DNA of 64,000 nucleotides from Peptostreptococcaceae bacterium (GCA_027064135.1 JAMOQG010000044.1:16274-80273), one strand, 5' to 3'; shown: positions 48,327 through 53,087, counted from the first letter of the stretch. The notes: generated by a model not told the origin, from the letters alone. Translations and numbers: made by a program.

Positions 48327-50432
48327 ATGAAGTATAACTATTTAGAAAAAGTATATAGTGGTATAGTTGCTAAAGCAATGGGGGTAATATTAGGAGCTCC
48401 AGTTGAACCCACGTTATGGACATATGAAAAAATATATGAAACTTATGGTGATATTACACAATATGTTAAAAAATTCAAAAATTTCGCTGCTGATGATGAT
48501 TTAAACGGTCCTATATTTTTCTTGAAAGCATTAGATTTGATGAAAAATGGTGAAAGCTTTGAAGCTTCCCATGTTGGTAAAGCATGGCTAAATTATTCGC
48601 GTGAAGGTATTGGTATGTTTTGGTGGGGAGGCTATGGCATAAGCACTGAACATACAGCCTTTTTAAACTTAAAAAATGGTATTGATGCACCACGCTCTGG
48701 TTCTAAAGAAGTTAATGGATTATCAATTGCTGAACAAATTGGTGGACAGATTTTTATAGATACTTGGGGTTTAATTTTTCCTGGGAATATGGAAAAAGCT
48801 GCTGAATATGCTGGAAAAGCCGCGAGTGTTTCTCATGATAAAAACGGAATATATGGTGCAAGATATATAGCTGCGTGTATTGCAAAAGCTTTTGATACAG
48901 ATGATATATTAGAAATTATTACTTCAGCTTTTAGTGTTATTCCTGATGACTGTGAGTATAGAAGAGTATGTGACGCAGTTATTGATTTTTATAATAATGA
49001 TAAAGAGAAAAACTTTAGAAAATGTTTGAATTATTTAACGAAAGAATTTGGATATGACAGATATTCTGGTGTTTGTCACATTATTCCTAATTCTGGCGTT
49101 ATTATTTTATCTATGTTATATGGTGAAGGTAATCTTGCTAGAACTATTGAAATTGCAACTATGTGTGGATGGGATACAGATTGCAATGCAGGGAATGTAG
49201 GTACAATATTAGGCGTATTAAATGGTTATGAAGGTCTTGTAGAAAAATATAGAACACAGATAAATGATGTTATAATTGCATCTAGTTCGATTGGATCTCT
49301 TAATATGATTGATATCCCAACATTAGCAAAAGAAATAGCCAATTACGGTTATCAATTGGCAGATGAGGAAACACCTATTGAAATAAAAGAAGTAGTTGAA
49401 AATTTAAGAGATTTAAACTTTGATTTTAATATTTCAGGATCTACTCATGGTTTTAGAACTAGTGATGCAATACGTTATCCAATTAGGCATACGGTTGGAA
49501 CAGGAGAAAATGGTACTGATAGTCTTACTGTGTTATTAGATAGAGTATATAGAGGAAATGTAGGAAATATTTATTATAAACCTTATTATCGTCGTGAAGA
49601 TTTTGATGATGAAAGATATCAGCCTGCATTCTCGCCAAAAGTATTTAGTGGACAAACAATGACATGTCGAATTAAGTTAGATAAATGGAATGGTGATGAT
49701 TTTGGTGTAGCACCATATATCAGACTTTCACACTCTAAAATTGAAATAGTTGGACAAATGCGAATGATTAAATCTAAAAAGTGGATTGATATTGAATATG
49801 AAATTCCAGATTCAAAAAGTGAACCAATAGATGAAATTGGTTTGAAATTAGAAAGCTTTACAAGAGAAAAAAATAAAGTGTTAGGAAATCTTCATATTAG
49901 TGAATTTAAAGTGTTCGGTAAAGGATATCATACTATCGATTTCAAAAAAGAAACCCGTGAATTTGGAACTATTACACAATTCACTGAAAATGCTGGTTCT
50001 TTTGTGCTTGAAGATGGTCATATACATGTGATATCAAATGAAAACTCATTAGCTTTAACGGGTAATTTTTACTCTGAGGATATTGAATATAATGTAACTT
50101 TGACTCCGAAATTTGGTAGTAAACATTTTGCTGCGTTTAGATGTCAAGGAATAAAAATTGGTTATTTAGTAGGGTTTGATGGAGATAAAGTTAAACTTAT
50201 CAAAAGTGATTTCGGTTATGAGACTTTACAAGAAATTGAGTATAAGACAGAAATGAGCAAAGATTATGCTTTTAACATAGAAGCGATTGGTGGAAAAATT
50301 AAGGTTAAAATTAATTCTGAAGAAGTAATTGATTTTGAAGATAAAAACTATTTAACTCACGGTTGTGTGGGTTATTCAATGTTTGATACAGGCAGATTAT
50401 TAGTTAAAAAAATATCGTTTAAGGAGCTGTAA
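48327..50432 (+). CDS. ADP-ribosylglycohydrolase family protein 2 with about 360-aa C-terminal beta-sandwich (ConA/LamG-like) extension
   Basis: 701 aa. ARH motifs in residues 1-340 (AADDDLNGP, GWDTDCNAGNVGTILG). The C-terminal part ends ..GGKIKVKINSEEVIDFEDKNYLTHGCVGYSMFDTGRLLVKKISFKEL, typical of lectin-like jelly rolls. No signal peptide. Confidence 0.7.
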   Translation: MKYNYLEKVYSGIVAKAMGVILGAPVEPTLWTYEKIYETYGDITQYVKKFKNFAADDDLNGPIFFLKALDLMKNGESFEASHVGKAWLNYSREGIGMFWWGGYGISTEHTAFLNLKNGIDAPRSGSKEVNGLSIAEQIGGQIFIDTWGLIFPGNMEKAAEYAGKAASVSHDKNGIYGARYIAACIAKAFDTDDILEIITSAFSVIPDDCEYRRVCDAVIDFYNNDKEKNFRKCLNYLTKEFGYDRYSGVCHIIPNSGVIILSMLYGEGNLARTIEIATMCGWDTDCNAGNVGTILGVLNGYEGLVEKYRTQINDVIIASSSIGSLNMIDIPTLAKEIANYGYQLADEETPIEIKEVVENLRDLNFDFNISGSTHGFRTSDAIRYPIRHTVGTGENGTDSLTVLLDRVYRGNVGNIYYKPYYRREDFDDERYQPAFSPKVFSGQTMTCRIKLDKWNGDDFGVAPYIRLSHSKIEIVGQMRMIKSKKWIDIEYEIPDSKSEPIDEIGLKLESFTREKNKVLGNLHISEFKVFGKGYHTIDFKKETREFGTITQFTENAGSFVLEDGHIHVISNENSLALTGNFYSEDIEYNVTLTPKFGSKHFAAFRCQGIKIGYLVGFDGDKVKLIKSDFGYETLQEIEYKTEMSKDYAFNIEAIGGKIKVKINSEEVIDFEDKNYLTHGCVGYSMFDTGRLLVKKISFKEL

Positions 50433-50701
50433 TGGATAAATTACAAGGTTCTTGTGGACAAGTTAGAAAAAGTGATGTGAAAATAACAGTTGATTTAGAT
50501 ACGAATGGAATAGAAATAATAATCATTTCTAAATTTGATAAAATGTTTGGAACTCATATGGAAGAAGCAGTTAAAGAAGTTCTTGCTGAGCAAGATATAA
50601 AAGATGCAAAGATAGTAATAGAAGATGATGGAGCTTTAGACTTTACGATTAAAGCACGTACTCGTACTGCATTAAAAAGGATTCACGAGGTGTTAAAATG
50701 A
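50432..50701 (+). CDS. citD: citrate lyase acyl carrier protein (gamma subunit)
   Basis: 89 aa. The prosthetic-group serine is conserved at position 14 (RKSDVKI, cf. ESGDV). DDGALD motif. The ATG shares one nt with the ARH2 stop, and an AAGGAG SD lies inside the ARH2 3' end. Confidence 0.85.
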   Translation: MDKLQGSCGQVRKSDVKITVDLDTNGIEIIIISKFDKMFGTHMEEAVKEVLAEQDIKDAKIVIEDDGALDFTIKARTRTALKRIHEVLK

Positions 50702-51579: not shown

Positions 51580-53087
51580 TTAGAAAATTACCGGAATATA
51601 TAGAAGGTTATGGCAAAGTGGTTCCGTATGGAACTATTATAACAAAGAAAGAAAAAGCAAAATTAAGCGATGTGGTGACTAAAAAAAATAGTAAAGTTAT
51701 ATCCCTTGAAGAGGCGATTATTAATTCTGGATTAATAGATGGTATGACTGTAAGTTTTCATCATCATTTAAGAAATGGCGATTATATAATGGAGCTAGTA
51801 TTTAAAATAATAAACAAACTTGGAATAAAAGATTTAACACTAAGTGCTTCGTCAATCTCAAAAACTCATGACTGTTTGCTTGAATACATAAAAGATGGAA
51901 CAATTACAAAGATTTATACTTCAGGGTTTCGTAGTGCATTAGCTAATGAAATACAATATAATTTCAATTTAAAAGCTCCTGTAATTTTTATGACGCACGG
52001 TGGACGTGCTAGAGCGATTGAAGATGGGAGTATAAGTATTGATGTTTCATTTGTTGCTGCATCATGTTGTGATAAATTAGGAAATATGAATGGTAAATAT
52101 GGTAAATCAGCATTTGGTGCTATTGGTTATCCTATGGTGGATGTTAAATATGCAAAAAAAACAATTGCTATTACAGATAATTTAGTTCCTATTATGGATA
52201 AAGATATAAGTATTCCAAAAGATTATATTGATAGTGTAGTGGTTGTTGAGAGTATAGGGAATCCACAGTTGATTGCAACTGGTGCTACAAGAATTAGTCG
52301 AAATCCAATGGATTTACTTATTGCAAAGAAAGCAGCAAATGTTCTCATTGCTAGTGGATATATAAAAGAAAATTATTCTTTCCAAGCGGGATCTGGTGTT
52401 ATATCGTTATCAGTTTGTAAATTTATAAGAGAATATATGAAAAAAAATTCTATAACTGGTGAATTTGCATCTGGTGGTATAACAGCTAACTTAGTAGATT
52501 TATTTGAAGCTGGTTTATTTAGGAAGCTGTATGATGTACAAACATTTGGTAGTGATGCAATATCTTCGCTAAACAGAAATGAGAATCATATTGAAATGTC
52601 GGCAGATGAGTATGCGAACCCTGCTAATAAAGAATGTATAGTAAACAAGTTAGATGTTATGATACTTTCGGCAACTGAGATAGATGTTAATTTTAATATT
52701 AATTCTGTAACAGGTTCTGATGGACGTATGATTGGTGCATTAGGTGGGGCGCCTGATACTGCAGCGGGTGCGAAATTGACGATAGTTGTTGCACCAAGTA
52801 TGCGAAAAAGATTTCCAATCGTAGTCGATAATGTTAAGACTATTTGTACACCTGGTGAGAATATTGATATATTGGTCACTGAAAGAGGTATATGCGTTAA
52901 TCCTCGAAGGACAGATTTAATATCAATTTTAAAAAGAAATAATATTGTTACGACATCAATAGTAACTCTTAAAAATGATATTTATAAGTTAACTGGTGTC
53001 CCTAATATCTTAAAAACTGGAGATAATATTGTTGGAATAATAGAGTATAGAGATGGTAGTGTTTTAGATATCATTTATGATTTGTAG
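51567..53087 (+). CDS. citF: citrate lyase alpha subunit (citrate CoA-transferase)
   Basis: 506 aa. LEEAI..SGL.DGMTVSFHHH.R.GD signature and overall length match CitF. Confidence 0.88.
   Translation: MGKIIRKLPEYIEGYGKVVPYGTIITKKEKAKLSDVVTKKNSKVISLEEAIINSGLIDGMTVSFHHHLRNGDYIMELVFKIINKLGIKDLTLSASSISKTHDCLLEYIKDGTITKIYTSGFRSALANEIQYNFNLKAPVIFMTHGGRARAIEDGSISIDVSFVAASCCDKLGNMNGKYGKSAFGAIGYPMVDVKYAKKTIAITDNLVPIMDKDISIPKDYIDSVVVVESIGNPQLIATGATRISRNPMDLLIAKKAANVLIASGYIKENYSFQAGSGVISLSVCKFIREYMKKNSITGEFASGGITANLVDLFEAGLFRKLYDVQTFGSDAISSLNRNENHIEMSADEYANPANKECIVNKLDVMILSATEIDVNFNINSVTGSDGRMIGALGGAPDTAAGAKLTIVVAPSMRKRFPIVVDNVKTICTPGENIDILVTERGICVNPRRTDLISILKRNNIVTTSIVTLKNDIYKLTGVPNILKTGDNIVGIIEYRDGSVLDIIYDL

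Follow-up and report, generated by a model that had tools for sequence, protein, structure and literature searches.

A citDEF set without the acceptor serine lies in an ADP-ribosylglycohydrolase-fold operon and may encode a lyase independent of the prosthetic group

We analysed a 64,000-nucleotide stretch of DNA from a Peptostreptococcaceae bacterium (GCA_027064135.1, JAMOQG010000044.1:16274-80273; the whole stretch is hereafter the window), in which three coupled genes, citD, citE and citF, encode homologues of the citrate lyase subunits. In the textbook view, citrate lyase requires a covalently attached arm, and genes annotated ‘citrate lyase’ are taken to imply citrate fermentation and a need for the loaders CitC (acetate:SH-citrate lyase ligase), CitX (holo-ACP synthase) and CitG (triphosphoribosyl-dephospho-CoA synthase). 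The three genes are arranged as follows:

50432-50701, plus strand: citD-like gamma subunit, 89 amino acids (aa); Pfam ACP/CitD, 74.9 bits
50698-51579, plus strand: citE-like beta subunit, an acyl-coenzyme A (CoA)/acyl carrier protein (ACP) lyase of the HpcH fold, 293 aa; Pfam HpcH_HpaI, 217.8 bits
51567-53087, plus strand: citF-like alpha subunit, a CoA/ACP transferase, 506 aa; Pfam CitF, 564 bits

The stop codon of the preceding gene, here named ARH2 for its ADP-ribosylglycohydrolase (ARH) fold, shares the sequence TAATG with the start of citD, with AAGGAG located 7 nt 5' of the citD ATG. The last 4 nt of citD are shared with citE, and the last 13 nt of citE with citF. The plus strand contains no terminator-like site between 44448 and 54413, and a strong terminator is found at 54688-54720. 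In an independent marine-sediment assembly from another study, a single 4.7-kb contig spans the 3' end of ARH2, citD, citE and citF with 6 differences, and the junction between ARH2 and citDEF is therefore not an assembly artefact. The window's own DNA appears to come from a hydrothermal-vent metagenome.

All three reading frames are intact and match their Pfam families, in agreement with the claim of an earlier note on this DNA that they encode genuine lyase subunits. Using curated NCBI models with their own cut-offs (TIGR01584, TIGR01588 and others), we found that CitF is the sole subunit of the three above its equivalog cut-off (TIGR01584, 623.8 bits versus 501), while CitE scored below it (TIGR01588, 325.9 bits versus 443.4) and CitD just below (62.5 versus 63.5). 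The strong parallels to enterobacterial CitDEF that the note had also claimed thus call for some qualification. CitE reached 158.8 bits with the citramalyl-CoA lyase model RipC_Ccl (cut-off 375) and 64 bits with the malyl-CoA lyase model (cut-off 500); judged by these models, it appears far closer to the citE family than to either of the other two. Its nearest solved structure is 1SGJ.

We next aligned CitD with that of Escherichia coli K-12 (NP_415150.1). The E. coli segment G10-T-L-E13-S14-G15-D16 pairs with G9-Q-V-R12-K13-S14-D15 in the window, so that the acceptor Ser14 of the E. coli protein is replaced by Lys13 and the acceptor serine is absent, while Ser14 of the window falls on E. coli Gly15. 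The ‘conserved Ser14’ of the earlier note is therefore a coincidence of numbering: the true acceptor column holds Lys13, and the window’s Ser14 varies between Ser, Cys, Asn and Gly in orthologues. A word-based homologue search with CitD returned 8 proteins. In the window’s clade, R-K occupies the canonical E-S positions; the lysine is invariant in all 7 members, and the residue that follows it is Ser, Cys, Gly, Ser, Asn, Cys and Cys. Ser33 is also invariant, both in this clade and in canonical CitD, and is probably structural because canonical CitD keeps it too.

Among 58 CitD proteins from CitF loci, 48 carry the acceptor serine, 47 of them in an E-S-[S/N/G]-D motif and 1 in D-S-C-D, and the remaining 10 have no serine at this position. 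Wherever citC, citX or citG lies within the range fetched around a CitF locus, that locus encodes a canonical serine CitD; within the same range, none of these three genes was found at any of the 10 serine-less loci. Lysine at the acceptor column recurs in three separate ARH-linked groups, including that of the window.

The window belongs to a metagenome-assembled genome (G000; 2.68 Mb, 158 contigs, 97.9% complete) with a single CitF; our own hidden Markov models (HMMs) found a single CitD in its six-frame translation. The earlier note had reported that citC, citX and citG are missing near citDEF, which is borne out in the window and extends to the genome. Pfam searches of G000 gave no match for CitG (PF01874) or CitX (PF03802), and HMMs built from the proteins of relatives found no CitG, CitX or CitC in its six-frame translation. 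For CitC, the sole PF08218 match in G000 was below threshold (19.8 bits). It lies outside the window in a 164-aa open reading frame (G000:C44:125947-126117, L001), which is probably a generic cytidylyltransferase-fold (nucleotidyltransferase-like) enzyme rather than CitC. The proposal that the accessory genes lie elsewhere thus finds no support in this 97.9%-complete genome, and the acceptor serine is missing too.

Loader absence in the window’s genome is unusual among its relatives. CitG and CitX are both present in all 13 of the other CitF-bearing genomes among 40 relatives. In a class-wide sample of 401 genomes, CitG was present in 32 of the 33 CitF-bearing genomes scored; the lone exception, an assembly that is 93% complete, has a congener in which CitG is present. 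Combining the two sets, 45 of 46 sampled CitF-bearing relatives carry CitG.

The earlier note had proposed a check for citrate carriers. No carrier of the 2HCT type was found in G000; transporters of the CitMHS superfamily are encoded on contigs C128 and C24, neither linked to citDEF. A homologue of OAD_beta on contig C19 is likewise unlinked. Neither in the window’s operon nor in the orthologous operons of the metagenomic contigs L042 and L044 is citDEF linked to an oxaloacetate decarboxylase or a citrate carrier.

A CitF tree of 67 rows, built by a quick, unrooted IQ-TREE search with support from the Shimodaira–Hasegawa-like approximate likelihood ratio test (SH-aLRT) only, places the window’s CitF in a set of 12 rows separated from the 55 others by a branch with an SH-aLRT value of 97. 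The 12 rows are the 10 serine-less loci together with L040 and L041; the other 55 are canonical except for five loci in which citD and citE are fused and three in which no citD was found. CitEF is present in the genomes behind L040 and L041, in which CitD, CitX and CitG were not found, and enzymes of this set can therefore work without an acyl-carrier arm. The loaders are missing genome-wide in G000, G437 and G438, while G436, G003 and G023 carry unlinked copies serving canonical paralogues. CitF proteins of the serine-less set also share the replacements C183F, V380S, H395A and A189P, all at positions where canonical CitF shows at least 95% conservation. Together, these data suggest that a divergent Cit(D)EF lineage gave up the covalent 2'-(5''-phosphoribosyl)-3'-dephospho-CoA arm.

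The closest paralogues in related genomes, at L025 and L032, share 55-59% identity with the window’s proteins and are serine-less as well; a scan of genome contigs with CitF yielded only three loci, at 53-58% identity. In both L025 (6617-16187; G003:C5) and L032 (6119-11115; G023:C8), the serine-less citDEF follows an aconitase-family gene encoding 757-781 aa, and in L025 PrpF and TctC/TctA come next. These clusters look like pathways of aconitate/tricarboxylate catabolism that end in a loader-less citrate lyase.

The window’s citDEF genes appear to be functional. Comparing the window with L042, the ratio of non-synonymous to synonymous divergence (dN/dS) was 0.21/1.42, or about 0.15, for citD, 0.155/2.36 for citE and 0.18/2.13 for citF; with ratios of about 0.07-0.09 for the latter two, citD evolves faster than citE and citF. 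CitE retains 41 of the 44 columns conserved in canonical CitE, and CitF retains 96 of 112 in canonical CitF.

Structure prediction supports the binding of CitD to CitE. The predicted complex had an ipSAE of 0.82, whereas the best of 3 controls scored 0.02. In calibration, 58 of 80 solved complexes attained the mark applied, as did 2 of 110 mismatched pairs; these counts are only rough because our own alignments were used for the prediction. Contacts agreed 100% between runs, the partner had a predicted local distance difference test score of at least 88, and the predicted interface pairs CitD residues 8-9, 13-15 and 68-83 with CitE residues 15-20 and 44-57. As the PDB holds no CitD structure, this pass is unlikely to reflect memory of a solved complex. 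An independent argument for contact comes from another ARH-linked clade, where CitD forms the N-terminal part of a fusion with CitE. The fusion is found in five metagenomic loci (402-455 aa; L053:233-1450, L077:2696-3904, L115:11894-13261, L117:4240-5463 and L119:12058-13365), with lysine at the acceptor column in 3 of the 5 and serine in 2.

The citDEF genes are the terminal lyase module of an 11-gene catabolic operon, to which the ARH genes also belong. The operon comprises two PfkB genes, CdaR, an ATP-binding cassette (ABC) importer without its ATPase, two ARH-fold hydrolases and citDEF. Its remaining genes, and the two that follow citF, are:

40782-41687, plus strand: PfkB-family sugar kinase 1, the first gene of the island; Pfam PfkB, 123 bits; kept together with cdaR in L042 and L044
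41677-42786, plus strand: CdaR/PucR-type sugar-diacid regulator; Pfam Diacid_rec and HTH_30; 65-72% identity in L042/L044
42938-43813, plus strand: PfkB kinase 2, ribokinase-like; Pfam PfkB, 218 bits
43815-44717 and 44718-45593, plus strand: two ABC permeases; Pfam BPD_transp_1
45660-47138, plus strand: extracellular solute-binding protein (SBP), 492 aa; Pfam SBP_bac_1
47159-48322, plus strand: ARH1, ADP-ribosylglycohydrolase fold, 387 aa; Pfam ADP_ribosyl_GH, 152 bits
48327-50432, plus strand: ARH2, 701 aa, an ARH domain (ADP_ribosyl_GH, 173 bits, residues 13-304) and a C-terminal beta-rich region of ~360 aa
53097-53468, plus strand: DUF1232 protein (Pfam)
53519-54526, plus strand: CaCA antiporter (Pfam)

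The flanks are those given in the earlier note, with Pfam confirming ARH proteins of 387 and 701 aa upstream and DUF1232 and a CaCA antiporter downstream. In L042 and L044 the operon is found again in full, with protein identities of 66-82%, and no accessory cit genes were found in the flanking DNA of either contig, up to 10 kb on each side. In the window, it sits in accessory DNA between ribF and rpsO-pnp (39815-59546). ARH2 and CitF are missing from both genomes of the same genus (86% and 95% complete), which marks the operon as an accessory island and is consistent with acquisition.

We then examined 80 metagenomic loci with ARH2. Their conserved core is permease-permease-SBP-ARH1-ARH2, with or without PfkB, to which one variable module is added: the permeases adjoin ARH1/ARH2 in 46-49 of the 80 loci, the ARH1 homologue group is present in 63 and 24 have a PfkB gene alongside ARH2. 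In the 46 loci that are 15 kb or longer, the variable module was distributed as follows, and in none of them did two modules occur together:

AtuA-family plus DUF4387 (CmlAB-type): 31 of 46 loci
Cit(D)EF: 8 of 46 loci
ADP-forming acyl-CoA-synthetase-like gene: 4 of 46 loci
No variable module: 3 of 46 loci

The AtuA-family and DUF4387 proteins match PDB entries 9ERQ/9EVF, ‘citramalate lyase subunits A/B’, with E values of 2.5e-119 and 4.7e-29. Cml of Raoultella planticola cleaves citramalate directly to pyruvate and acetate (bioRxiv 10.64898/2026.01.16.699985), and a DUF1446 gene occupies the place of the clostridial citDEF in a glutamate-fermentation cluster (PMC4682846). With our own HMMs, neither AtuA nor DUF4387 was found in the six-frame translation of G000. 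According to the CitF tree, Cit(D)EF joined ARH operons on at least 4-5 separate occasions. We also considered ARH1 and ARH2 as dedicated CitD loaders, and rejected this as the main reading on finding that most of the 80 ARH loci have no Cit genes.

One of the recruited sets is canonical. In L124 (2482-11217; G392:C62), ARH2 and ARH1 are followed by a serine-bearing citD, citE and citF, and then by a 357-aa citC-like gene and a 465-aa gene matching CitG, which possibly encodes a CitX-CitG fusion. The same ARH pathway can thus be served by a cofactor-dependent lyase as well as by a cofactor-free one. The third module (CoA_binding plus Succ_CoA_lig) was seen in L075, L080, L089, L090 and L092 (for example, L092:894-2318), and never with CmlAB or CitEF.

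On this basis, the reading we favour, at a probability of roughly 0.6, is that the window encodes a Cit(D)EF that needs no prosthetic group, uses free acetyl-CoA and cleaves a citramalate- or citrate-type acid derived from an imported ribose conjugate. The operon would import a sugar (probably ribose) conjugate of such an acid; ARH1 and ARH2 would split it, the sugar passing to a PfkB kinase and the acid to the lyase module, which would yield pyruvate (or oxaloacetate) and acetate. Within the module, CitF would move CoA from free acetyl-CoA onto the hydroxy acid and CitE would split the resulting acyl-CoA into acetyl-CoA and a 2-oxo acid, so that CoA acts catalytically through the regeneration of acetyl-CoA. 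CitD would stay as a structural subunit docked on CitE, with Lys13 perhaps steadying the phosphates of free CoA, which is speculative.

Gene content, the exchange of serine for lysine, the genome-wide lack of loaders, the structure of the clade and the swapping of modules were observed directly; the use of free CoA, the identity of the substrate and the part played by Lys13 are what we infer from them. The isolated alpha and beta subunits of citrate lyase reportedly accept acetyl-CoA and citryl-CoA in place of ACP thioesters (Dimroth and Eggerer 1975; Heider 2001, on family II CoA-transferases); we extend this in vitro behaviour of the classical subunits to the window’s enzyme. The earlier note had suggested that the complex may be activated differently. 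This is borne out, and in a stronger sense: the carrier has no conserved acceptor, relatives in the clade dispense with CitD, CitX and CitG, and covalent activation is probably not needed at all. Its other suggestion, of a hydroxy acid different from citrate, is plausible, as homologous ARH operons hold a CmlAB-type citramalate lyase in the same slot; what ARH1 and ARH2 set free for it is probably an acid of the citramalate or citrate type.

Several observations weigh against the proposal of a prosthetic-group-independent lyase. Fusobacterium-type members mostly keep a serine one position downstream of the acceptor column, where an offset acceptor is possible. The canonical citDEF of L124 lies in an ARH operon, so the operon context itself demands no cofactor-free enzyme. 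The mutual exclusion of CmlAB and Cit(D)EF makes them alternatives and is not proof of a common substrate, and the ADP-forming acyl-CoA synthetase that serves as third alternative does not belong to the lyases. The aconitase-family, PrpF and TctABC genes beside L025 and L032 mean that the wider clade points to citrate rather than citramalate. In addition, the absence of loaders from a 158-contig assembly is not absolute, and the CitF tree is limited by its quick search, its single kind of support and its lack of a root.

The strongest alternative, much less probable yet quite conceivable, is a CoA-dependent lyase acting on ordinary citrate to give oxaloacetate and acetate, the citrate being released from the conjugate or having no relation to the ARH genes. 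CitF does pass the citF equivalog cut-off, the nearest paralogues stand in a context that would supply citrate (an aconitase-family gene, PrpF and TctABC), a canonical set with citC and citG has also been recruited to an ARH operon (L124) and the genome has an OAD_beta homologue. However, CitE is under the citE cut-off, the alternative module in 31 of the 46 loci is a citramalate lyase of the CmlAB type, and neither the window’s operon nor its two orthologues have a linked oxaloacetate decarboxylase or citrate carrier.

Quite improbable, in our judgement, is a covalent cofactor on another residue of CitD (Ser14, the invariant Ser33 or Lys13), attached by some other enzyme, perhaps one with the ARH fold. 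The ARH family cleaves the alpha(1''-2') ribose-ribose bond, the same bond as in the citrate lyase arm. The translational coupling of the ARH genes to citD would fit such a role, as would the purifying selection on CitD, the invariance of Lys13 within the clade and the recurrence of lysine at the acceptor column in three separate ARH-linked groups. Against this, Ser14 varies among orthologues, Ser33 is equally invariant in canonical CitD and some relatives in the clade carry no CitD at all.

Two further explanations are very improbable. The first, a normal holo-citrate lyase with its citC, citX and citG overlooked, could draw on the fragmentation of the assembly (158 contigs) and on the ~2% of the genome that may be missing, but three separate genes must then all fall in gaps, the acceptor serine itself is gone, L042 and L044 show no accessory genes up to 10 kb on either side, and relatives usually have them beside citDEF. 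Similarly hard to credit is a decaying citrate lyase remnant on an acquired island: despite the absence of the island from both same-genus genomes and the faster evolution of CitD, the reading frames are unbroken, with coupled starts, citD has a ribosome-binding site, dN/dS is well under 1, the catalytic columns are kept and the operon is conserved between lineages at 66-82% identity.

Compared with the classical citrate (pro-3S)-lyase (EC 4.1.3.6) of E. coli (citCDEFXG) and Klebsiella pneumoniae, the window has the same three families in the same order, citD-citE-citF, a CitF that passes the equivalog cut-off and most of the conserved CitE and CitF columns. It differs in having Lys13 for Ser14, no CitX, CitG or CitC in the genome, CitE and CitD scores below the cut-offs and a CitF in a separate tree set with C183F, V380S and H395A. 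Whereas the classical set is accompanied by a citrate carrier and oxaloacetate decarboxylase, that of the window lies in a sugar-conjugate operon.

In homologous ARH/ABC/PfkB operons, CmlAB (AtuA family plus DUF4387; PDB 9ERQ/9EVF; R. planticola) takes the place of Cit(D)EF and never occurs alongside it, and the chemistry expected of the two is alike: a 2-hydroxy-2-substituted succinate would be cleaved into a 2-oxo acid and acetate. The two share no sequence kinship, however, and CmlAB consists of two subunits described as cleaving citramalate directly, whereas Cit(D)EF works via thioesters. The citramalate lyase of the clostridial methylaspartate pathway (EC 4.1.3.22) is a CitDEF homologue that cleaves citramalate (PMC4682846), but it comes with CitCXG-type genes, glutamate mutase, methylaspartase and mesaconase (PMC4682846), none of which is linked in the window. 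In the ARH-linked CitD-CitE fusions, CitF falls in another part of the tree, while CitD of the window is a separate, coupled gene.

No description of a serine-less CitD or of this ARH operon turned up in a literature search. The unfused serine-less form of CitD, with a genome-wide test for loader absence, and the interchange of Cit(D)EF and CmlAB are new. This interchange provides a functional handle on the ARH-fold/ABC/PfkB operon, which is widespread (Paenibacillus, Bacillus, Cohnella, Clostridia and Victivallales), and represents a non-homologous replacement of one reaction step. If a sizeable lineage does run on free CoA, annotations would mislead, as would the metabolism reconstructed for anaerobes of vents, sediments and the gut, and the textbook requirement of citrate lyase for a covalent arm would need a qualifier. 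A more specific version, which we put forward tentatively and hold to be rather doubtful as a whole, would have Lys13 take over from the covalent phosphodiester anchor as a non-covalent dock for the phosphates of free acetyl-CoA on the CitD-CitE surface, so that an ACP-dependent machine turned CoA-dependent with its complex architecture kept. In this version the operon would also degrade an undescribed natural product, a ribose (sugar) conjugate of citramalate or citrate, with CmlAB, an acyl-CoA synthetase and four or more Cit(D)EF lineages filling the lyase step independently.

Several minor observations concern the rest of the operon. The ABC importer (43815-47138) has no ATPase gene in the operon, and its ATPase must be encoded elsewhere. 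The DUF1232 and CaCA genes may be co-transcribed with the operon, to judge by their position ahead of the terminator; both are absent 3' of citF in L042 and L044. In the locus survey, cluster ‘c30’ and several minus-strand open reading frames in high-GC loci were discarded as antisense artefacts, as they occupy the permease and SBP positions. The nearest solved structures to the SBP are family-1 SBPs and AlgQ1/2, but the matches of the SBP and ARH proteins to solved structures are too weak to name the imported compound. ARH2 is a member of a widespread family of ~700-aa proteins, in which the ARH domain and ~360 extra residues are conserved at ~50% identity across Firmicutes. While no solved relative was otherwise found for ARH2, its residues ~583-689 weakly match (E 0.004) the carbohydrate-binding module of a levanase (PDB 4B1L).

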